Of a stretch of DNA of 64,000 nucleotides, positions 556 to 64,000 are shown one piece after another. A model generated the notes under the pieces. That model worked only from the letters and a program-made list of their open reading frames with translations, made no database searches and was not told where the DNA came from. Source of the stretch: a virus. The position numbers and the translations under genes are program-made. The stretch lies in IMG/VR virus record IMGVR_UViG_3300031368_000001, positions 44,286 to 108,285 of that record. One strand, 5' to 3'. The first letter of the stretch is position 1; the number at the start of each line of letters is the position of its first letter.

Positions 556-924
556 ATGAAAAAGAAAAAACTATATTATGCTACAAAGGATAATTTTACA
601 GAACTAACATGGAATCCAGAACTTTTTGATAATTTTAGAGAAGCAAGCTCTCATGAAATCACATTAGAGCAGCTAGCAGACATGTTCGACCAGCACGCGG
701 AAAGTATTAATGCGCATGACTTCGTTACTACTCACCGTGCATTAGCAGCATTGCTTTATAAAAACTTTGGCAGGGAAATAGCAACCAAAGTATTAATATC
801 ACTTGTAGATTTTGAAGGTCTGCATGGTCTTACCGGGGTCGGTGGCAAAACAAATCCAGATGAACATGAAAAAGAATTACATGTACCATTGAATAACTGG
901 AAAGATTGGAGCTTAGGAATATAA
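556..924 (+). CDS. hypothetical protein
   Basis: 122-aa ORF with GGGGAG RBS. Confidence 0.6.
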   Translation: MKKKKLYYATKDNFTELTWNPELFDNFREASSHEITLEQLADMFDQHAESINAHDFVTTHRALAALLYKNFGREIATKVLISLVDFEGLHGLTGVGGKTNPDEHEKELHVPLNNWKDWSLGI

Positions 925-926
925 TT

Positions 927-2330
927 ATGAACCAAGACATTCTTACTAAAATAACCACAGCCCAAAAAATTCTCATTCTCGATTATTCATTCTGGGGAAG
1001 TCTCGCTCTGCGTCTTACTCTAAAAGAGGACGAAACCTGTAAGACCGGTTGGACTGATGGAGTTACTCTTGGGTATAATCCACACTGGATCGAGACTCTC
1101 TCACACAAAGGAACCGTGGCCTGGTGCGCTCATGAAGTATGCCATCCAATGTGTCAGCATCATACAAGAAGAGCTGGAAGAAATCATAGGTTATGGCAAA
1201 CGGCTGCTGATTATGTGGTTAACAGTATACTTGTAAAAGAAAAATTTGATTTACCCGGCCAGCCTCTCTACGATCCACGCTTCAATGGTATGAGTACAGA
1301 TGAGGTATATAGTATTTTAGAGAAAGAAATGGAGGAGGAAAGGGAAAATAGAAGGAAAGAAATCAATGAAAAAAATAAAAGTGAAAATAAAGGAGTTAAA
1401 GGAAATAACTTACCTGATAGCTCTACTGATCCTGGCAACGAGCCTATGGATGACAATTCAGATGATGGGAATGCTGGGAATGATAGAGACACCAACGATA
1501 ATGGTAAAGATGATGAAAAGAATCAAAAAGACAGCGGAGGTGATTTAGGGAATAACGCCAATAAGAGCAAAGATGATCCTGATGATAACGATCCTGATAA
1601 TAATGATCCTGATCCTGGCAACTGCGGAGAAGTAAGAGACTATCCAGGCAAGGATAATGACCCCTCCCCTTCTGACATGAAACAGCAAGAACAAGATTGG
1701 AAAATAGCAACTGTGCAAGCTGCAACACAAGCTAAACAACATGGCAACATGCCCGCAGGTCTCGATGCTGAAATTCAAAACATAGTAGAACCAAAAGTAG
1801 ATCCGCGAGATTTATTACAAAAATTTGTGGCCATGTCTGCTAAGAATGACTTCACGTGGTCCATGCCAAATAGAAAATATATTCCTCATGGATTATACCT
1901 ACCCAGTATGAAGAGTGAAGAACTGGGAACTGTGGTTTTAGTTTTAGATACATCGATTAGTATCGGTCAGAAAGAACTGGATAATTTTTCAGCGATCGTC
2001 TCAGCTATTCTGGAAACGTATATTATAGATGCGATTGTTCTTTACTGTGACACGAAAATATACGAACCTGAGTATTTCAAGAGAGAAGATTTACCCCTGA
2101 AACTAAAAATGAAAGGACGGGGTGGAACGAATTTTGCGCCACCTTTCTTGTTCGTAAAAGAACATGACATAGATCCGGTATGCCTGATTTATTTAACAGA
2201 TCTTGAATGTAATGACTATCCAGATTTTGAACCAAGTTATCCGGTGATGTGGATATGTACGGACCCACCGGAATATGTATATGATATACCACCATTCGGG
2301 GAAATAATATATATAGATTTAGAGAAGTGA
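927..2330 (+). CDS. DUF2201-type metallopeptidase + vWA domain protein
   Basis: TGWTDG and AHEVCH (HExxH) motifs, acidic D/N-rich linker, VLDTSISI (MIDAS DxSxS), GRGGTNF, IYLTDL; start taken at MNQDIL. Confidence 0.85.
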   Translation: MNQDILTKITTAQKILILDYSFWGSLALRLTLKEDETCKTGWTDGVTLGYNPHWIETLSHKGTVAWCAHEVCHPMCQHHTRRAGRNHRLWQTAADYVVNSILVKEKFDLPGQPLYDPRFNGMSTDEVYSILEKEMEEERENRRKEINEKNKSENKGVKGNNLPDSSTDPGNEPMDDNSDDGNAGNDRDTNDNGKDDEKNQKDSGGDLGNNANKSKDDPDDNDPDNNDPDPGNCGEVRDYPGKDNDPSPSDMKQQEQDWKIATVQAATQAKQHGNMPAGLDAEIQNIVEPKVDPRDLLQKFVAMSAKNDFTWSMPNRKYIPHGLYLPSMKSEELGTVVLVLDTSISIGQKELDNFSAIVSAILETYIIDAIVLYCDTKIYEPEYFKREDLPLKLKMKGRGGTNFAPPFLFVKEHDIDPVCLIYLTDLECNDYPDFEPSYPVMWICTDPPEYVYDIPPFGEIIYIDLEK

Positions 2331-2854: not shown

Positions 2855-2897
2855 GTTTATATACAGATATTTTTCTGGTTAATACTGTGCGTTATAC
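2855..2897 (+). mobile_element. attI-like primary recombination site A heading the left cassette array
   Basis: GTTTATATACAGATATTTTTCTGGTTAATACTGTGC/GTT; 36/39 identical to the reverse complement of 62076-62114; GTTATACGC (2891-2899) is the exact reverse complement of GCGTATAAC (3107-3115) closing cassette 1. Confidence 0.75.
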
Positions 2898-2915
2898 GCA
2901 AAAGGAAACTTAAAT

Positions 2916-3107
2916 ATGAAATATATATATGCTGTACTCAGGGAGACAGGTGGAGCACACAAAAGTATGGACGTAATGAGCGTGTGGACAAACAAAAAAC
3001 TCGCCCAGAAAGAGGCTAATAAATTGAATGTATTAGCATCGGAGGGCTATGAATGTGAAGTGCGTAGATGGATTGTAAATGAAACTGGTGATACAATTAA
3101 CTGGTAG
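2916..3107 (+). CDS. cassette A1 hypothetical protein
   Basis: 63-aa ORF between GTT 2891 and attC 3109. Confidence 0.7.
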   Translation: MKYIYAVLRETGGAHKSMDVMSVWTNKKLAQKEANKLNVLASEGYECEVRRWIVNETGDTINW

Positions 3108-3108
3108 C

Positions 3109-3167
3109 GTATAACCATGCCCCTGAAGCCAACAGCAAATAGCTGCGGCTTACCGGCGGCGTTAGGA
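3109..3167 (+). repeat. attC site A1
   Basis: GTATAAC-CATGCCCCTGAAGCC...GGCTTACCGGCGGC-GTTAGGA; nearly the same sequence as attC 61865-61923 (-). Confidence 0.88.
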
Positions 3168-3174
3168 GTCAACA

Positions 3175-3444
3175 ATGAGTGTTGTCACAGATATTATTTT
3201 GGTTACTGCTATTGAGGATGGCGCATATAGACCATCATTCGACTTAGTTAAAGTCGACCAATACGCAGGCGGAGGCAAGGCGGTACAGTGCGATGTGTTT
3301 ATGTCAGCCGTTAACTACTTGGTTTTAGAGGATTTACTTGATTGGTTCAAGTCTGTAAGATGGGAATATCCAGAACAGGTGCAACTTTTTGTTAAAGGCG
3401 AACACGACGACAAGTTTGCTGTGTACTGCCCTGAAAACTCCTAA
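3175..3444 (+). CDS. cassette A2 hypothetical protein
   Basis: 89-aa ORF; cassette starts GTTAGGAGT and ends ACTCCTAAC (9-bp perfect complement); the stop codon lies in the R'' box. Confidence 0.75.
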   Translation: MSVVTDIILVTAIEDGAYRPSFDLVKVDQYAGGGKAVQCDVFMSAVNYLVLEDLLDWFKSVRWEYPEQVQLFVKGEHDDKFAVYCPENS

Positions 3445-3505
3445 CCAATCGTTCAACAACCGACCGCCGATACAGCCCTGTGGCGGGTTAACTCAAACGT
3501 TAGGT
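3439..3505 (+). repeat. attC site A2
   Basis: TCCTAAC...CCGCC..GGCGG GTTAACTCAAAC GTTAGGT hairpin. Confidence 0.85.
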
Positions 3506-3669
3506 GGCAAGCATGAGAAAGCCTTTGACAGGGCATAGGCCATATCCGAGTGAAAGGATAGTACAGCCCATGGATAAGGCATCACACATGCAAGTCTGGT
3601 TGGCTATAACTATTATTGGCAATTAGCATTGCTGGTAGTTTAGGCAGTTCGATTCTGCCATTGCCACCT
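3503..3669 (+). ncRNA. ORF-less cassette A3 encoding a structured RNA with tRNA-like acceptor stem and T-arm
   Basis: GGTGGCAA/TTGCCACC terminal stem; GGCAG-TTCGATT-CTGCC T-arm; nested stems GCATG/CATGC, GCCTT/AAGGC, GGGC/GCCC, TATCC/GGATA. Confidence 0.6.
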
Positions 3670-3727
3670 AATAAATCCCTGAACCAGACGCCATAAAGCT
3701 CGGCGCTGGTTAGCTCAAGCGTTAAGG
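3666..3727 (+). repeat. attC site A3
   Basis: ACCTAAT...AACCAG-CGCC...GGCG-CTGGTTAGCTCAAGC-GTTAAGG. Confidence 0.82.
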
Positions 3728-3736
3728 AGGAAAAAA

Positions 3737-3895
3737 ATGAAAATGTCAGTAAAAGAGTTTGATTCATTGACAAAGAGAGATTTTGACAATGGAGCGGTTA
3801 GGGATGCTATTCGCAATAGCTTAAAAGAGTGTGAAAAATTGCTTGCCTCCCAACAAGTCGTTGAAGCAGACCGCGCTAATCGCACGACTGATTAA
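3737..3895 (+). CDS. cassette A4 hypothetical protein (52 aa, not in ORF track)
   Basis: AAGGAGG RBS immediately after GTT 3721; MKMSVKEFDSLTKRDFDNGAVRDAIRN...; reads into the attC. Confidence 0.65.
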   Translation: MKMSVKEFDSLTKRDFDNGAVRDAIRNSLKECEKLLASQQVVEADRANRTTD

Positions 3896-3909
3896 CTCAG
3901 GCGTTATAA
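3848..3909 (+). repeat. attC site A4
   Basis: TCCCAAC-AAGTCGTTGAAGCAGAC...TGATTAACTCAGGC-GTTATAA. Confidence 0.75.
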
Positions 3910-4459: not shown

Positions 4460-4719
4460 ATATGAGAAGCGCTATGGCCAGCGCAAGAGCGAGAACTTTA
4501 AATGAAAAATTCCATAAAAGTGCTGAAAACACTGTAAATAGATTACTAACAAGCCCCACACATTCAGCAAGAGTCTCTACAAAGTTAGCTAAACATATTT
4601 TGATACAACATGAAACTCTCTTATATAATGGAATAGTATATTCTACTCACGTAAGAAATATAGGCGCTGGTGTAAAGGAATTATATTTAAAGGAATTTCA
4701 TGAGGAGATAAGACCATGA
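4456..4719 (+). CDS. hypothetical protein
   Basis: ATGA-coupled to the upstream ORF. Confidence 0.65.
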   Translation: MNMRSAMASARARTLNEKFHKSAENTVNRLLTSPTHSARVSTKLAKHILIQHETLLYNGIVYSTHVRNIGAGVKELYLKEFHEEIRP

Positions 4720-4988
4720 CTGATAATGATGCCATGACCGACAATAACACCATCCGTGATGTAAACACCGTCCGTGATGTAAACACCGTCCGTGATGTAA
4801 ACACCGTCCGTGATGTAATAAAATTTAAAGTACATGTGATAAGAACAGGCTGGGCAAGTTTGGATATTGCTATCGCTGCAAAAGATAAGGATAGTGCAAA
4901 AACAAAAATTATGGATACTATTGGAGACTATGAATTCTCAGAATATGATGCTGAGTATGAAATAGAATCTATGGAGATAATACCATGA
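4716..4988 (+). CDS. hypothetical protein with NTVRDV repeats
   Basis: ATGA-coupled; contains an 18-bp tandem repeat. Confidence 0.6.
   Translation: MTDNDAMTDNNTIRDVNTVRDVNTVRDVNTVRDVIKFKVHVIRTGWASLDIAIAAKDKDSAKTKIMDTIGDYEFSEYDAEYEIESMEIIP
4746..4817 (+). repeat. 18-bp tandem repeat AACACCGTCCGTGATGTA x4 (extra copy at 5042-5059)
   Basis: Read directly from sequence. Confidence 0.9.
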
Positions 4989-5212
4989 CTGACAATACTA
5001 TGACTGATAATACCATGACCGATAATAATATGACTGATAATAACACCGTCCGTGATGTAATGAAAGATCGTATCCGGGATCTGTTGGCTGGATATTTTAG
5101 GATAGATAATTTAGATGTAGACGCTGATCTCGTAGCCAATATAGCTGATGAAGCTTTTTCGGTGACAGGGATAAGTGAGAAAGAACAGGATGAGGAGTGG
5201 AAAATTTTATAG
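4985..5212 (+). CDS. hypothetical protein with MTDNT repeats
   Basis: ATGA-coupled; N-terminus shares repeats with the previous ORF. Confidence 0.6.
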   Translation: MTDNTMTDNTMTDNNMTDNNTVRDVMKDRIRDLLAGYFRIDNLDVDADLVANIADEAFSVTGISEKEQDEEWKIL

Positions 5213-5587: not shown

Positions 5588-5799
5588 CTAAACAGGAAAA
5601 GCGTAAGTACTGCATCGGCTGTAGAGACAATTTCTACAACGGCAATAATCCATATGGCATTAAGGAATGCTGGAATCTTAAAGATGCAAAATTCGTGAAA
5701 AGAAAAAAGATTCCTATAGATTTGAGCCCACCTTATGATCATATAAAAAAACAGAAAGTTTTGAGCTGCTATGGCCAAAAGGGGTATGTATATTGGTAG
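5584..5799 (+). CDS. small Cys-rich phage protein
   Basis: KYCIGCRDNFYNGNNPYGIKECW motif; ATGA-coupled. Confidence 0.7.
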   Translation: MTKQEKRKYCIGCRDNFYNGNNPYGIKECWNLKDAKFVKRKKIPIDLSPPYDHIKKQKVLSCYGQKGYVYW

Positions 5800-5802
5800 T
5801 TA

Positions 5803-5897
5803 GGTGGTAAATGCTGCTTATAAGCAGAGGGTCAGCTTGTATCTGACGTTTGATAGTAAACAAAACTATCATGCAGGGTTAAATCTGTATACCACCT
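5803..5897 (+). ncRNA. ORF-less cassette encoding a tRNA-like cloverleaf (TGT in anticodon position, long variable arm)
   Basis: GGTGGTA/TACCACC acceptor; CTGCT-TATA-AGCAG D-like arm; GTCAG-CTTGTAT-CTGAC anticodon arm; TGATAGT/ACTATCA extra arm; TGCAG-GGTTAAAT-CTGTA T-like arm; flanked by GTTA/TAAC. Confidence 0.65.
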
Positions 5898-5951
5898 AAC
5901 CAACCCACTAAGCTCGATAGCTAAAATTGCTGGTTAATTCAAGCGTTAGAT
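5894..5951 (+). repeat. attC site after the tRNA-like cassette
   Basis: ACCTAAC...CTGGTTAATTCAAGC-GTTAGAT; right arm resembles attC A3. Confidence 0.75.
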
Positions 5952-5968
5952 TCATCAAGGAGGTAAAC

Positions 5969-6166
5969 ATGGAAATAGACGAAATTATAAATAACTTGGG
6001 CAAAAAAATATCAACTCCAAAAGGAAATCAATTATTAGCTGGTTTTCAAATTGCAGTGTTAATGGAAAACAATAAATTAAAAGCATATCCTCAATCAATA
6101 TCATTAATCTGTTGGTCAGATAATGGTGGAAAATATATGCATTGGGCAATTGATTGTAAAAAATAA
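5969..6166 (+). CDS. cassette hypothetical protein
   Basis: AAGGAGGT RBS, MEIDEII..., stop codon within AAATAAC. Confidence 0.65.
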   Translation: MEIDEIINNLGKKISTPKGNQLLAGFQIAVLMENNKLKAYPQSISLICWSDNGGKYMHWAIDCKK

Positions 6167-6221
6167 CAAGCCGGTTGAGTCTAACGCTCATAAACTCGCG
6201 TGTCTTACCTCACCATTATAC
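6161..6221 (+). repeat. degenerate attC site
   Basis: AAATAAC-AAGCCGGTTGAG...CTTACCTCACC-ATTATAC (GTT mutated to ATT). Confidence 0.5.
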
Positions 6222-6254: not shown

Positions 6255-6404
6255 ATGAAAGTAGACCTAATAGCTATTGGCTATGAATGGATCTGTCTGA
6301 AGTGTGGACATCTTAATAATGAGTTCGAGATATTAAAAGAAGTTACCTGCGTAGAATGCGGTGAGATTTATGAAGTAGGTGAGACAGAACATGCGTGTGG
6401 GTGA
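6255..6404 (+). CDS. small zinc-ribbon protein (49 aa, not in ORF track)
   Basis: MKVDLIAIGYEWICLKCGHLN...TCVECGEIY, two CxxC motifs. Confidence 0.6.
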   Translation: MKVDLIAIGYEWICLKCGHLNNEFEILKEVTCVECGEIYEVGETEHACG

Positions 6405-6465
6405 GACAGAACATGCGTGTGGGTGAGGCAGAACATGCTTATAGGTGAGACAGAACATACTTATA
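6378..6465 (+). repeat. 22-bp tandem repeat GGTGAGACAGAACATGCGTGTG x4
   Basis: Read directly; the last two copies have diverged. Confidence 0.9.
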
Positions 6466-6498
6466 GATAAAAAAGCAAAATAGAGGAGGTGAGTATAC

Positions 6499-7979: not shown

Positions 7980-9323
7980 TTATGAACTGAACGACTCTCT
8001 CCACACTGCATCGAAAGAGCGATACCAGACGCGGAGATGCATTTGCTTGACAGTTCTAAGTTCGTTACGAAAACCAAGGGTTCTTAATATTCGGCCTACA
8101 TCCTTACGAGTAATCCTTTCTTTCTCTGCATTAGCCATATTAAGAAGAGTCTCCATACGAAGATAAATAACTTCACCATTCACCACAATTCTACTACCTA
8201 TCCATTTGATATCCTTCATCACACCTTCTGAATAAACTTCTGAATTAATTAATCTTAAAATTAATCCAGTTAATGTCTCATCCATGGTAAGCTGAATAAT
8301 TTCAGCTTCAGCCAAAGCTTTATTAACCATGTTTTCCCATGTTAGCTGTTTTACTGGTTTTGGAATCCTACCGGCTAGCTCACAAAATTTAATTTTAAAC
8401 ATGGAAAAAATAACCAATTCGTTTGTATTCATCTCAACTGATTCATCACTATGATTAGCTAAAAAAACTCTATATTTTCTTGCGCTATCGGGTGGAGGAT
8501 ATTTCAAAATTTGAATTTTACTAATCTTTTCACCAACAGTTTTCCCCATTGCTTCTCGACCTTCTCGATCAGCAACTGATTTTATAGTACGTTTAATTTC
8601 TTTCCAGTCTAAAGGAGGAGTATTTCTTTCATTCCAATTCTCAAGAATTATTTCAGTTTGTGTAATATCACCATTAAAAATTCGTAAATAATAACCAGCA
8701 AGCTTGGTACAAACAGCATTTCGACTACCTTCCTTTACGCCCATAAGAGCTTCCTGTACCCAACCTTCAGGATTTTTTGAAACTCCGGTTATTCCCTGAT
8801 CGGCTACAAGCTTATCCTTAACATCACTTGGCAAATCCATAAGATCATCAAGGTCCATCTCAATAGGATCAATATCCCATTTATACTGAGTGCCATTAGG
8901 ATGAATAGAAGGAGCTACTACAATATATCCTCCATCAGCACGAACATCCACATCAGGGAATAAACCAACTCTATTCTGATATTTTTGGTCTCGAGGATGT
9001 TTAAATAAAAGATGAAGAGATCCTTTTTTGCCTGTGGTTTGAGTAATAGTACCGTGAAGGTCGCCAAAGGCCGCAATATAATTCTCACGACCTATTTGTG
9101 AATCTAAATCTAATACAATAAGATCCGAAACAAAACCAGTAACAAGACCAATATTAGCATCAGGCCATTTTTTCCACCAATGTTTTATTTGATCATCTGT
9201 TGCTTTCTCTTTTTGAAATTTTTCCCATGTTTTTAGCATAGGACTTTTTTCTCCAGGCCGAATTGGAAAAACAGACCATCCCAAACGAGCATATGCTAAA
9301 GCATACTCAGCTAAAGTTTTCAC
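7980..9323 (-). CDS. bifunctional DNA primase/polymerase (Prim-Pol + PriCT)
   Basis: ALAYARLGWSVFPI..K.P, ANIGLVTG..SDLIVLDLD, LHLLFK, DVRADGGYIVVAPSIHP, EGSRN...PPL..KEI; GTG start with AAGGAGG RBS. Confidence 0.92.
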   Translation of the reverse strand: MKTLAEYALAYARLGWSVFPIRPGEKSPMLKTWEKFQKEKATDDQIKHWWKKWPDANIGLVTGFVSDLIVLDLDSQIGRENYIAAFGDLHGTITQTTGKKGSLHLLFKHPRDQKYQNRVGLFPDVDVRADGGYIVVAPSIHPNGTQYKWDIDPIEMDLDDLMDLPSDVKDKLVADQGITGVSKNPEGWVQEALMGVKEGSRNAVCTKLAGYYLRIFNGDITQTEIILENWNERNTPPLDWKEIKRTIKSVADREGREAMGKTVGEKISKIQILKYPPPDSARKYRVFLANHSDESVEMNTNELVIFSMFKIKFCELAGRIPKPVKQLTWENMVNKALAEAEIIQLTMDETLTGLILRLINSEVYSEGVMKDIKWIGSRIVVNGEVIYLRMETLLNMANAEKERITRKDVGRILRTLGFRNELRTVKQMHLRVWYRSFDAVWRESFSS

Positions 9324-53072: not shown

Positions 53073-53084
53073 GAATATTTTAAG

Positions 53085-53158
53085 TCCGGGTGGCTGGATT
53101 TGAACCAGCGACTTTCTGCTCCCAAAGCAGGCGCTCAACCAGACTGAGCTACACCCAG
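53085..53158 (-). tRNA. trnP: tRNA-Pro(TGG)
   Basis: CTGGGTGTAGCTCAGTCTGGTTGAGCGCCTGCTTTGGGAGCAGAAAGTCGCTGGTTCAAATCCAGCCACCCGGA; CCA not encoded. Confidence 0.93.
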
Positions 53159-58659: not shown

Positions 58660-58703
58660 TACTTATCTCCTAACGCCGCTAATAACCTGCCCAAAATAGC
58701 AGT

Positions 58704-58892
58704 TTATTTTGGGTCAAAGTTCATTTGTTTGTTAGATGGATGATTAAGAAGTTTTTCAGTGCTTTTCACTATCTGCTGAAAAAAATTAAGCAAAAATTCT
58801 AAATCCCTTTTGGTAAACTGGCCTTCTTTCATTGCCACCATGATTTGTCTACAAGCATTTTCTATAATTTCTGCACTTATCATATTGTCCAT
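58704..58892 (-). CDS. cassette B11 hypothetical protein
   Basis: Cassette GTTAGATGGA...TCCATCTAAC (10-bp perfect complement); the ORF reads into the attC. Confidence 0.65.
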   Translation of the reverse strand: MDNMISAEIIENACRQIMVAMKEGQFTKRDLEFLLNFFQQIVKSTEKLLNHPSNKQMNFDPK

Positions 58893-58945
58893 CTAACGCC
58901 TGAGATAACCCGCCTGCGATTAGCAGATCGGAGTTCAGAGACTGG

Positions 58946-59167
58946 TTATGCATCTTTGCAACTTTCAATAAGAACCATTCTAAGCGCGTCCATTTCCTGA
59001 GTAGCATGGTAATAGAACTGTTTGATTTTTGCTAACAGTCTTTCTTCAACAAATTGCATCTGAATTTGTACTTCTTTGCTACCACGAAAATCACCTATTT
59101 CCTCTATTTTCCGTTCAAGACTGATTCGCTGTCTCACATATTGTTCATATGCTTCTTTATCAAACAT
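58946..59167 (-). CDS. cassette B10 hypothetical protein
   Basis: ATTATGCA...TGCATAAC ends; stop codon in R''. Confidence 0.65.
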   Translation of the reverse strand: MFDKEAYEQYVRQRISLERKIEEIGDFRGSKEVQIQMQFVEERLLAKIKQFYYHATQEMDALRMVLIESCKDA

Positions 59168-59208
59168 GGTCTGGAACCTTCTTTCTTAAATCTGCATAAT
59201 GCCAAGCA

Positions 59209-59493
59209 TCACTCGCCAGCGTTTTTACTGGTCGAGTGAATGCTATCGTTAGCGACATTTTTATGGTGCTCGCTAAATTGCTCAAACAAAACATCAAGTT
59301 TGCTCTCCATTTTTCTATCACAATCCTCGCACAGATAAGTATGTCGCCTCTTATTTTCGGTCGACACAAGATGATAATGCTGCGAGCATGCTTCCTTTCC
59401 GCAGGACCAGCACGTAAGGATGGTATGCAAATCGTCTTCTCTTGCACCGCAAATATCACAATATTTAACTTCAACTTCCTCTTTTTTCCTCAT
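59209..59493 (-). CDS. cassette B9 zinc-finger protein
   Basis: CDIC...CWSC...CSQH...CEDC; AAGGAGG RBS. Confidence 0.7.
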   Translation of the reverse strand: MRKKEEVEVKYCDICGAREDDLHTILTCWSCGKEACSQHYHLVSTENKRRHTYLCEDCDRKMESKLDVLFEQFSEHHKNVANDSIHSTSKNAGE

Positions 59494-59570
59494 CTACTAT
59501 CCTCCTTTTAAGGATTGCTAACGCCTGACCTAACCCGCCCAGCTATGCTGGGTCGGAGTTGAGTGAATTG

Positions 59571-59783
59571 TTATAAAGATTTTTTTAGTTTTATCATTGA
59601 TGAAACACCTATTAAAAAAGGCATAACTGCACCAACAAAAGGCATCCATATTGCATCCCACCAAGTAATTAAATAAGGATCTTCTGTCATTGTACCGACT
59701 TTAGCAACCAGTAAACCATAGAAAAAAGCACACCAAGCTATTCCTAAAATAAATGTTGGCCAATCTACTCTATCTTTAAACAT
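59571..59783 (-). CDS. cassette B8 two-TM membrane protein
   Basis: Two hydrophobic helices; 16-bp perfect end complementarity GTTATAAAGATTTTTT. Confidence 0.7.
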   Translation of the reverse strand: MFKDRVDWPTFILGIAWCAFFYGLLVAKVGTMTEDPYLITWWDAIWMPFVGAVMPFLIGVSSMIKLKKSL

Positions 59784-59858
59784 TATTTAAACCTCCTAAA
59801 AAATCTTTATAACGCCGCCGGTAAGCCGCGCTTTATTGCGTCGGCTGGAGTAGCCTTG

Positions 59859-60404
59859 TTATATTCGTTTTTGTCCATAATCCTTCTTTTTGATTTTTCC
59901 CATTCTTCCATCAGGGTGGTGAAATACGATTCCTTCAATGTCCTTATCTTTCATGAAATCGGATATACCTTCAAATGTTCTCTGCACGGTTTTAAATACT
60001 TGAGCTTTCTCATGTTTCACAAGGGCATGAACATTATATCCCTCTGGATTCCCTTGAATTTTTGGCCCGACAAGCTCATATGTGCCATCAGATAGCTTTT
60101 CTGAGAAAGTTTCCATGTGCCACCGGTCTTCTTTAAGGCTTCGATCTACTGGAACCCAACCAACACGCTTCCCTGTATTTTCATCAAATTCTTCTTCAAT
60201 AAAATTATTTGGTGCAACCCTACCCTTTTTTACTTCTCTGCGTTTGAAATAATTCCCGTTTTCTATTTTTACGCATGTGCCGTCATATTTTCGAGTCGCC
60301 ACGCCTTCACCATTAAAAACCCATTCACAATCAAGATGATGTTCATGAAGGATTTCACGCATATTCTCAGGGTTCCTTTTAAAGATTGTTGGTATTTTCC
60401 TCAT
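59859..60404 (-). CDS. cassette B7 RNA-ligase-like protein (DUF5565/RLIG1-like)
   Basis: ATRKYDGTC (motif I KxDG), TYELVGPKIQGNP, IEGIVFHH..G.M.KIK. Confidence 0.75.
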   Translation of the reverse strand: MRKIPTIFKRNPENMREILHEHHLDCEWVFNGEGVATRKYDGTCVKIENGNYFKRREVKKGRVAPNNFIEEEFDENTGKRVGWVPVDRSLKEDRWHMETFSEKLSDGTYELVGPKIQGNPEGYNVHALVKHEKAQVFKTVQRTFEGISDFMKDKDIEGIVFHHPDGRMGKIKKKDYGQKRI

Positions 60405-60482
60405 GACTCTTCCTCCTTTCAAAGAATATAACGCTTGAGCTAACCAGCCGTGTGATTAGCACGGTCTGAGTTGAGTGATTCG

Positions 60483-60707
60483 TTATAATTGTCCAGCATC
60501 TTGTAATATTTCTGGTGTTACATCTTTTTTCTCAATATACTCACACCGGAGATACCCCCCTCCTTGGTCAATTCTATTTACCAATATAAACCTACAGCTT
60601 TCTTTGCTCAAGGCTGTTTCAATAAGTTTATGTTCAATGTATGCATTGGCCGGAGTAATGTCCCATTGACTCAATGCAGCCCATCCGTATCTTTCACCTG
60701 TATTCAT
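60483..60707 (-). CDS. cassette B6 hypothetical protein
   Basis: GTTATAATT...AATTATAAC ends; GGAGG RBS. Confidence 0.65.
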   Translation of the reverse strand: MNTGERYGWAALSQWDITPANAYIEHKLIETALSKESCRFILVNRIDQGGGYLRCEYIEKKDVTPEILQDAGQL

Positions 60708-60751
60708 TTTGACCCTCCCTAAATTATAACGCCTGCGATCAGCCGCAGCGG

Positions 60752-60952
60752 TTAGCTGTCGGCTTCAGAGGCCTGGTTATCTGTTTTCTCTATCAATACT
60801 TTTATCTCGTCTACACGTCGCTTGACATCTAAATCGCCTTTATATGACAACGTACCATAGAATGTTGGGTCAAGTCCTTTGGGTACAATCTTTACCCAAT
60901 CTGGAACAAATGACATTAAATATTTGCATGCCTCCAATAGATCGCTTTGCAT
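60752..60952 (-). CDS. cassette B5 hypothetical protein
   Basis: GTTATCTGT...ACAGATAAC ends; AAGGAG RBS before MQSDLL. Confidence 0.65.
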   Translation of the reverse strand: MQSDLLEACKYLMSFVPDWVKIVPKGLDPTFYGTLSYKGDLDVKRRVDEIKVLIEKTDNQASEADS

Positions 60953-61017
60953 TATTTTAATCTCCTTTACAGATAACGCCTGAGCTAACCCACCCAAAAT
61001 AGCGTAGCTATTGAGGG

Positions 61018-61239
61018 TCAGAGTTCAGGGGCCTGGTTATGTGATTCAATTATTTCTTTGATACCATTCAGAACATGCCTCATATTACTTGCTGAAATTG
61101 CATCAAGGGTCATACCGTGCTGTTTCAAAACTTTATGCGCTTTCTTAAAATCAGGCTCAGGGAAAACGCTTAATGGATACGCATTAATCCAAGTTTTAAT
61201 TTTACGCATCTTATCTTGTAATTCTTCTAATTCGCTCAT
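61018..61239 (-). CDS. cassette B4 conserved phage hypothetical protein
   Basis: W.NAYPL.VFPEPD..KA..VL...GMTLDAISAS.MRH. Confidence 0.7.
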   Translation of the reverse strand: MSELEELQDKMRKIKTWINAYPLSVFPEPDFKKAHKVLKQHGMTLDAISASNMRHVLNGIKEIIESHNQAPEL

Positions 61240-61312
61240 TTTCCCTCCGTATAACGCCTGAGCTCACCAGCCAGATTAGCAAAGCTATATCTGGTCGGAG
61301 TTCAGGTATTTG

Positions 61313-61522
61313 TTATATTCCATCTTTCCATTGCTTATAATGTAAATCAACTTTCTTTTGGTCATACTCGAAAGAATTTATAGGAGTTCTACGAAGCTGC
61401 ATAAGTTTTATTAATATATGCTCATACGCAGTCTCAGCTTTCCCTGTTCCGTTATCCATTACAGAACATACTATGTCGATAATTTCTTCATCATTACTAC
61501 GGTCAATATAATTAACGCTCAT
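61313..61522 (-). CDS. cassette B3 hypothetical protein
   Basis: GGAGG RBS; stop codon in R''. Confidence 0.65.
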   Translation of the reverse strand: MSVNYIDRSNDEEIIDIVCSVMDNGTGKAETAYEHILIKLMQLRRTPINSFEYDQKKVDLHYKQWKDGI

Positions 61523-61603
61523 AACCTACCTCCAATTCATTAGAAATTTAACGCCTGACCTAACCAGCGGGCGTTTTACTAGCCCGTCTGGTTTAGGGAT
61601 TTG

Positions 61604-61849
61604 TTAGCCACGATTTTGTGGCCTCTCCTGATTGTCTTTTTCAATAGCTTCCATCAAATTTTGTAATGACTTTCGAGTATTTAATGATTGCCCGCCACCC
61701 GACAAAGTACAGAATTCAGCATTTTGTATGAAATGCTTTGATTCTTTTCGGTCGGGAATGATGGATACAATCATATCTCCATCATCTTGCTGACATATAA
61801 CCAACCGCCCTGTTGGACTCATATCTTCGTATCGTTCAACTTGCTTCAC
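61604..61849 (-). CDS. cassette B2 hypothetical protein
   Basis: GTG start after AAGGAGG; REDMSP.G.L....DDGD.IV...EFC..GGG.S. Confidence 0.65.
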   Translation of the reverse strand: MKQVERYEDMSPTGRLVICQQDDGDMIVSIIPDRKESKHFIQNAEFCTLSGGGQSLNTRKSLQNLMEAIEKDNQERPQNRG

Positions 61850-61889
61850 TTTATCCTCCTTGGTGCCTAACGCCGCCGATAAGCCGCAG

Positions 61890-62057
61890 CTATTCACTGT
61901 CGGCTTCAGTGGCTTGGTTAGATTTTTCTTCTTTTTCTACACATTCAAGGCATTTCTCTTCATTAAAATCGAATTCATCTGCCTCAAAAAGCTCCCAACA
62001 TTCAGTACAACGATATAATTTTGGAATGCCGGTATCATTAAACCAATTAGTCGCCAT
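61890..62057 (-). CDS. cassette B1 zinc-ribbon protein (55 aa, not in ORF track)
   Basis: MATNWFNDTGIPKLYRCTECWE...KCLECVE; AGGAGG RBS; reads into the attC. Confidence 0.6.
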   Translation of the reverse strand: MATNWFNDTGIPKLYRCTECWELFEADEFDFNEEKCLECVEKEEKSNQATEADSE

Positions 62058-62071
62058 AATTACCTCCTAAA

Positions 62072-62114
62072 ACCCAACGTACATTATTAACCAGAAAAAT
62101 ATCTATATATAAAC
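62072..62114 (-). mobile_element. attI-like primary recombination site B heading array B
   Basis: Minus strand GTTTATATATAGATATTTTTCTGGTTAATAATGTAC/GTT, 36/39 identical to 2855-2893. Confidence 0.75.
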
Positions 62115-62139
62115 TAAGATATAAAAAACTTACTCATAT

Positions 62140-62490
62140 TTATTTTTCATCGACCCACCTATCATTTTCATCTTTCACCTCAATTTTCAAATTCTCAGGT
62201 TTCATCGCTTTATCGATTCTTTGTTCCATAGTCTTGCCTGAATCAATTTCATAAGCAAGCCAATTAAGCCACAACTTGAATTTTCCTGAAGCAGCAAGCC
62301 GACGTAAAGCAAGACCTTTATTACGGTACTGACTCCTATCTGTGTGACTTTCGCCAATAGCGCCAGAAGCTCGGTGAATTATACGAACTGCTGAATCTGT
62401 CTTATTAATTTTTTGTCCACCATGTCCGCTGGACTTAAAGGTCTGAACGATAAAATCCTTTTTAGTGAGTGTAATCAGATGTTCTCTCAT
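62140..62490 (-). CDS. peptide chain release factor-like protein (RF-1 GGQ domain; ArfB/PrfH-like)
   Basis: FKSSGHGGQKINKTDSAVRIIH..SG......RSQ.RNK..AL.RL. Confidence 0.88.
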   Translation of the reverse strand: MREHLITLTKKDFIVQTFKSSGHGGQKINKTDSAVRIIHRASGAIGESHTDRSQYRNKGLALRRLAASGKFKLWLNWLAYEIDSGKTMEQRIDKAMKPENLKIEVKDENDRWVDEK

Positions 62491-63907: not shown

Positions 63908-64000
63908 AAGAAAAACGCAATATGTCTGACTTGACAATAACTTTATCCACCAACTCGATCTCCGCGTCTGGTATCGCTCTTTCGATGCAGTGTGGAGAGA

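Follow-up and report, generated by a model that had tools for sequence, protein, structure and literature searches.

A 36-nt attI-like unit heads integron-type cassette arrays on opposite strands of a tailed phage genome and in unrelated phages

Two arrays of small gene cassettes that lie on opposite strands of one phage genome begin with the same 36-nt sequence unit, and arrays in unrelated phages are headed by the same module. The unit is probably an attI-type docking module at which cassettes are exchanged by an enzyme of the IntI type, most likely that of the host. Integron cassettes in phages were first reported only in 2023 (PMC9892861); what appears to be new here is a defined, seemingly portable head module that is common to unrelated phages, is present twice per genome, and occurs inside an array and in tandem. 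With the unit there is a concrete, testable sequence on which to examine whether phages make use of the host's integron integrase to gather and exchange small accessory genes, and if the module works, the phage and bacterial cassette pools would be directly linked.

Two copies of the unit in one phage record

The stretch of DNA analysed, here called the window, comprises 64,000 nucleotides, bases 44286-108285 of a 108,285-bp IMG/VR record (phage G000) that is linear and 77% complete by CheckV. G000 is assigned to the tailed phages because its genes include those of a portal, a large terminase, helicases and a primase-polymerase. It is present in Logan contigs from 2019 salt-marsh metagenomes. 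Among GenBank phages there was no match, near or distant, and since the relatives found through its helicase share at most 30% identity, there are no close relatives for a comparison of arrays.

A first-pass annotation of the window had reported a site of 39 nt with 36 positions matching between 2855-2893 (+) and 62076-62114 (-), and this match was confirmed with its three mismatches; two matches of the 39-mer arose in none of 100 dinucleotide shuffles. With a repeat finder the pair grows to 42 nt at 90% identity (2852-2893 and 62076-62117). Pairwise alignment with 120-nt flanks reveals no likeness upstream or past the GTT triplet, and bears out the earlier statement that identity ends at that triplet. 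The left copy of the 36-nt attI-like unit occupies 2858-2893 (+), with a GTT before it at 2855-2857 and the crossover triplet GTT at 2891-2893; the right copy occupies 62076-62111 (-), with a minus-strand GTT before it at 62114-62112 and the crossover GTT at 62078-62076. The left copy is the top scorer among all copies against a profile built from eight of them (E 3e-10), and no third copy was found in the 108,285-bp record, either at 8 mismatches in 30 nt or by search with the unit profile.

Each unit has a co-oriented gene upstream. The left one is an ORF of 79 aa that belongs to no known family; the right one, at 62140-62490 (-), encodes a 116-aa RF-1 domain (GGQ) protein resembling peptidyl-tRNA hydrolases, a factor that is to our knowledge unusual in a phage. 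Past the right unit the record continues for 1.9 kb. An inverted repeat of 55 nt (91%) connects 7996-8050, at the 3' end of the primase-polymerase gene, with 63946-64000, the final bases of the contig; it may run past the end of the record and could reflect a terminal or an assembly feature.

The right-hand junction is spanned with zero differences by independent Logan contigs (61949-62253) from a run that is not flagged as the source sample, and is therefore not an assembly artefact. In the Logan contigs of the right array, the attC halves are common to many other contigs of the same salt-marsh runs, and loose ends adjoin the G|TT crossovers of cassettes 6 and 10. These contigs yielded no informative joint at the unit, the joints seen there being explained by the paralogous left array.

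The bases that follow the GTT were said to pair with the inverse core of the respective first cassette, and this holds fully on the left only: the opening 9 bases of the left first cassette, counted with the GTT, are exactly complementary to its own inverse core at ~3106-3114, and pairing in the right first cassette is weaker, at 8/10, the remaining two being G.T pairs.

Cassettes and attC hairpins

Behind both units small ORFs stand in rows, separated by imperfect hairpins of 57-70 nt that start ...TAAC and end GCGTTA. The window holds 15 such attC sites, ten on the minus strand between 61922 and 58668 and five clear ones on the plus strand between 3110 and 5951. In the left array, cassette 1 (2892-3161, +) carries an ORF at 2916-3107 and an attC at 3110-3167 that matches the attC profile with E 9e-10. 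Cassettes 2-4 (3162-3903, +) are recognized by the profile together with the complementarity of their own ends and have attCs at 3441-3505, 3667-3725 and 3850-3909, the first of which was found by the profile though outside its training set. Two further cassettes (5799-6210, +), identified by the same two features, lie past a 1.9-kb operon-like block. One of them (5799-5945) is without an ORF, has its attC at 5895-5951 and an own-end complement of 11 nt, and is preceded by a GTT with neither attC nor unit; this lone cassette looks like a secondary insertion of the attG type, and no RNA was called in it by ARAGORN or Rfam. The other begins at 5945 (+) and has a decayed attC at ~6163-6210, with 8/9 own-end complement. 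In the right array, cassette 1 (61871-62077, -) has an ORF at 61890-62057 and an attC at 61922-61866, followed by cassettes 2-10 (58668-61870, -), whose attCs have their end-G at 61552, 61255, 60977, 60730, 60432, 59813, 59522, 58897 and 58674. These nine attCs match the profile with E 1e-8 to 1e-12, and own-end complement runs of 9-12 nt are found in five of the cassettes.

The attC profile (nhmmer) was trained solely on phage hairpins and was tested against two class 1 integrons from a plasmid collection. It recovered all six known attC places, the aadA1 attC of R100 In2 and five of pSTM6-275, at full length, on the correct strand and with E 1e-9 to 6e-7, and gave no other match in the 18 kb of R100 In2 and pSTM6-275. 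In 13 of 14 sites the complementarity of a cassette's own ends equals or exceeds that to the next cassette (exact runs of 9-12 nt in six), which is the signature of exchange at G|TT. In the folds of the attC bottom strands the R-box stem is followed by an unpaired spacer and then by an L-box stem with extrahelical bases; most show a bulged T on the 3' arm, and the second bulge is A or T where the textbook has G. Single-sequence folds were used; a MAFFT-based consensus fold of the set was uninformative, the alignment not being structural. On the strength of the profile matches, the own-end complementarity and the folds, the hairpins behind both units are, judged by sequence, genuine integron attC sites of the canonical kind. 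Both arrays fit the description of a CALIN, with at least two close attC sites and no integron integrase nearby. A complete integron, with intI, attI and Pc in one locus, was not found, there being no intI and no flagged consensus promoter.

The attC of right cassette 1 (61866-61922) is 89% identical to that of left cassette 1 (3110-3167), and a similar attC (342-398) belongs to the first cassette behind the unit of metagenome contig L058; the ORFs of these first cassettes are unrelated. Such near-identical first-cassette attCs may mark a preferred partner of the unit or may have arisen by gene conversion.

Ten small cassette ORFs of the window gave no Pfam match, and Rfam and ARAGORN called nothing in the arrays. 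One cassette of G000 carries an RNA-ligase-like domain. An ORF-less cassette in the left array (3499-3721, +) has tRNA-like ends with a GGTGGCAA...TTGCCACC closing stem, and another, at 1062-1190 of phage contig L031, has the T-loop motif GGTTCGAATCC. ORF-less cassettes with tRNA-like ends recur in the arrays of different phages, and ARAGORN finds no tRNA in them. The first cassette behind the unit of L058 (125-346) shows a likeness to Lar-type restriction-alleviation proteins at 27.8 bits, the Pfam cut-off being 28.6; this hints at cassettes that carry counter-defence genes.

The unit in other phages

A motif scan of IMG/VR for attC sites and then a search with the attC profile led to contigs with related arrays, in which the same head sequence was read, and pattern scans added more. 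Eight full copies of the unit are known from five contigs, two in G000 and six in four others. One copy is in L058, found by a pattern scan with the 23-nt core. A tandem pair is in the IMG/VR phage G001 (L026; 32.6 kb, 85% complete), whose genes include an endolysin and a TerL from a different family; one copy lies inside an array in G002 (L031; 50 kb, 44% complete), which has a helicase and a primase; and two copies in G003 (L076; 48.9 kb, 53% complete) head two arrays that diverge and lie 4.6 kb apart. The gene sets of G000, G001 and G002 differ, so the carriers are distinct phages. An alignment of the eight copies has 21 invariant columns out of 36 between flanks that are unrelated on both sides, and gives AATATACAGAnnTTTTTCTGGTTAATACTnTGCGTT as the majority consensus.

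In seven of the eight copies a different cassette, with an inverse core that complements its start, follows directly after the GTT. The complementary runs are exact in the left copy of the window (9 nt), L058 (12), the second unit of L026 (13), L031 (11) and the minus-strand unit of L076 (10), and inexact in the plus-strand unit of L076 (8/9), as in the right copy of the window. Since these runs exceed the 4-5 bases that are fixed by the consensus, they are not due to chance, and the variety of cassettes at the GTT of the unit indicates that the junction has formed anew many times and with changing partners, as happens at an attI. The eighth copy, the first of the G001 pair, has the second unit after its GTT. 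In G002 the unit comes directly after the GTT of an attC, with further cassettes upstream of it. A GTT also stands at the 5' border of the unit in four of the eight copies, including both of the window.

Two outcomes would have told against the first-pass proposal, namely a motif that is common as a simple promoter or operator, and relatives in which cassettes are never inserted at its GTT. Neither was seen: the two copies of G000 are at array heads and the full-length copies elsewhere are at cassette borders, and in the other genomes different cassettes are joined exactly at the GTT, with matching inverse cores in runs of 10-13 nt.

The collection scans require exact words and miss diverged copies of the unit. 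With this proviso, a 19-mer of the site, searched as an exact pattern, had no match in IMG/VR, and the exact 23-nt core is absent from bacterial genomes taken one for each of 185,579 species. The description of the unit as phage-specific is apt only in so far as these exact-pattern scans returned no bacterial copy. Two more metagenome matches to the 23-nt core, one within a coding region (L060) and one in AT-rich intergenic DNA without an attC (L059), are treated as chance or uncertain. A 17-mer core in six further IMG/VR contigs comes without the 5' half of the unit and without attCs, at about the number expected by chance on a rough estimate. The six matches of an attC type-A pattern in bacterial genomes all lie within genes and are due to chance, so that no host integron was identified in this way, and the Desulforapulum plasmid pHRM2a has generic attC sites and no unit.

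Anatomy of the unit

The last 20 nt of the unit consist of CTGGTTA, 7 bases and GCGTTA, and many local attC 3' halves have the same blocks with a 6-nt spacer. The GGTTA box noted earlier is accordingly real, as it forms part of an arrangement that mirrors the 3' half of those attCs. In sequence the unit thus resembles the L'-R' half of an attC in duplex form, with two direct GTTA cores 13 nt apart. It is not detected by the attC profile, the likeness being too short. Its single-strand folding is minimal (-1.0 kcal/mol, z -0.2, for the right copy), as expected of a site that is used as duplex DNA.

The unit has no sequence similarity to attI1, as is expected for sites of different integrases. 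It holds the position of an attI at the head of an array, with the first cassette directly after the GTT, in 7/8 copies. No cognate intI was found next to the unit, and neither IntI nor another tyrosine recombinase was found anywhere in the 108 kb of the record.

A weak sigma-70-like pattern can be read in the invariant positions: the first hexamer agrees at 4/6, the spacer measures 17 nt, and the second hexamer has its T, its A and its last T. The sigma-70 consensus scan reached at most 8/12 and called the unit in neither the window nor L026, and the terminator scan did not call it either; the three terminator-like calls of the left region all lie on the opposite strand. A promoter role for the unit is conceivable; its AT-rich 5' half may provide added accessory sites for the integrase or a weak promoter for promoterless cassettes.

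The recombinase

Six-frame searches of G000, G001 and G002 found no Phage_integrase domain, no member of the integron-integrase family and no resolvase. The first-pass annotation had noted that no intI gene adjoins the site, and this extends to the whole 108 kb, where the searches detected neither an integron integrase nor any further recombinase of the tyrosine or serine type. In G003 a tyrosine recombinase of 380 aa is encoded between the two units. Its divergent gene was missed by the PF00589 six-frame scan, an indication of the limits of such searches; searches with phrog_1 and with the G003 protein itself found it, as a positive control, and found nothing in G000, G001 or G002.

The G003 recombinase is unlikely to be the cognate enzyme. 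It is 26% identical to IntI1 over 157 residues and lacks ~45 residues at the extra domain of IntI1, and for its structural model (pLDDT 83) the best PDB match is the full-length lambda integrase, arm-binding domain included, with IntI4 at rank 22. The predicted fold would most simply be that of a lysogeny integrase, and the family has 17 metagenome members in a set of 5.8 billion proteins. The region between the divergent unit-headed arrays of G003 (L076 3665-6260) also encodes an N6/N4 DNA methylase.

As no cognate integron integrase was found on any of the four phages, the records of which are all incomplete (77, 85, 44 and 53% for G000 to G003), a host integron integrase acting in trans is probably the enzyme and is the most economical inference.

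Relation to known systems

Clusters of attC sites without an integrase are known from virulent phages, and IntI1 can recombine such sites (Qi et al. 2023, PMC9892861). The arrays described here resemble those phage CALINs in having canonical attCs in phage genomes without an integrase, and differ in their defined, conserved head that recurs between phages, with two platforms per genome in G000 and also in G003. The attI of that study is confined to a cryptic Shewanella prophage, M16-3, where an attI of the Shewanella type, that is of the known type of the host, heads a CALIN. In comparison with integron attI sites (attI1 of R100, the attI of M16-3), the unit is alike in its place at the promoter-proximal end of the array with the first cassette directly after it, in the terminal G|TT crossover shared with attC R' boxes, and in being a non-palindromic duplex, with another core of the GTTA type a short way upstream and an AT-rich stretch farther up. 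It differs in lacking both an intI beside it or in the record and any likeness to attI1, and in being a discrete element of 36 nt that is common to unrelated phages, once in an array and once in tandem.

The attG secondary sites of integron integrases (10.1101/2022.09.11.507474) are comparable in that cassettes are inserted outside a classical integron at G(A/T)T with no local integrase gene; however, an attG consists of GWT with weak flanking motifs and is scattered, whereas the unit is a conserved 36-nt module reused in seven junctions. Large phages of the T4 type have PeSL elements (PMC2839356, PMC4122927), which are likewise short, repeated and non-coding; they flank small accessory ORFs in plastic genome regions, and a role in the shuffling of modules has been proposed for them. 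In contrast to PeSLs, which are promoter-terminator composites recombined by homology, the hairpins here are attC-like without a T-tract and are accompanied by own-end complementarity, which only site-specific exchange at G|TT produces. The early promoter with terminator-like stem-loop that defines a PeSL was not found, since neither a promoter nor a terminator was called at the unit, and the likeness may be regarded as a functional analogy only.

A docking module and competing explanations

Read as an attI, the 36-nt unit would be a double-stranded docking module for integron gene cassettes, with its two GTTA cores placed in the manner of the L' and R' boxes in the attCs nearby and with strand exchange at the terminal G|TT, to which the junctions point. 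Cassettes, each an ORF with a folded attC, would be inserted and removed there by an integron-type tyrosine recombinase, which is probably not encoded by the phage and would most likely be borrowed from a host integron during infection. We infer recombination at the unit from the arrangement of the junctions. The attI proposal of the first-pass annotation appears to be supported by the confinement of the unit to cassette borders and by the different cassettes at its GTT elsewhere. Several points count against it. Canonical attI sites adjoin intI and are specific to their own integrase, and we know of no description of a textbook attI inside an array (as in L031) or in tandem (as in L026). The imperfect pairing of the right first cassette counts against it, as does the weak sigma-70-like fit, by which part of the conservation could serve transcription. 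The absence of the 23-nt core from the bacterial species scanned weighs in the same direction, a host integron with such an attI not being documented. It is conceivable, but on balance doubtful, that the unit is a portable attI that is itself moved by the integrase, a circle of unit and cassettes being excised and entering any attC, attI or bare GTT and thereby seeding platforms in unrelated phages. The GTT that precedes the unit (that of an attC in G002, that of the first unit in G001, and in both copies of the window) suggests that the 5' border may also be a crossover and the unit possibly mobile. If so, the new platforms would exchange accessory cassettes, possibly ones for counter-defence, by means of integron integrases of the host, and the unit may also carry a promoter that expresses them.

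It seems unlikely that the unit is mainly a promoter or operator for promoterless cassettes, which abuts a cassette merely through a GTT usable as a secondary site. The sigma-70-like invariant positions at 17-nt spacing would place a predicted start near the GTT, internal and tandem units are normal for promoters, and a bare GWT site is enough for integron integrases to insert a cassette (Loot et al., 10.1101/2022.09.11.507474); yet the consensus scan raised no flag, the unit is not used elsewhere in the 108-kb phage, it travels with attC arrays across unrelated phages and not with any phage gene, and its 3' half copies the L'-R' layout of an attC. A fossil origin, in which the 3' half of an attC became fused to AT-rich DNA and has since been inherited or copied by homologous recombination without working any longer, is given rather little credence. 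It would account for the two short blocks common to the unit and attC 3' halves and for the lack of an integrase at hand, and arrays without an integrase are often considered remnants (discussed in Loot et al., 10.1101/2022.09.11.507474). However, seven different cassettes joined precisely at the GTT in five contigs mean that the junction was repeatedly remade, and 21 of 36 invariant positions between unrelated flanks point to selection on the unit itself. The unit might also be a true attI that is served not by the host but by a recombinase encoded in the missing 23% of G000 or by a co-infecting phage, an arrangement that we think improbable. The record does end shortly past the right unit, and G003 has its tyrosine recombinase gene between two unit-headed arrays, but that enzyme has the three-domain fold of the lambda-Int type and is short at the extra domain of IntI1, and no homologue of it was found in G000, G001 or G002. 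A gene lying in the missing part of all three would have about a 2% chance, if the CheckV completeness figures hold. Finally, the array heads could be random GWT secondary sites of the attG type that resemble each other through local duplication. Such insertions are frequent in experiments (Loot et al., 10.1101/2022.09.11.507474), and the lone cassette at 5799-5945 resembles one; nevertheless, the 36-nt unit recurs between unrelated flanks in four further contigs that come from other data sets, and the similarity within the window is limited to 42 nt, which makes this explanation very improbable.

Other features of the window

The 474-aa protein encoded at 906-2330 (+) bears the PHROGs label HNH endonuclease, which is not sustained by Pfam, where it matches DUF2201 (metallopeptidase-like) and a VWA-like domain, neither a nuclease nor a recombinase. 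Repeats of 15 and 18 nt lie within small ORFs at 4707-5077, and four tandem 22-nt repeats at 6375-6480 overlap short predicted ORFs. A tRNA-Pro (TGG) gene is located at 53084-53158 (-), in the structural region.
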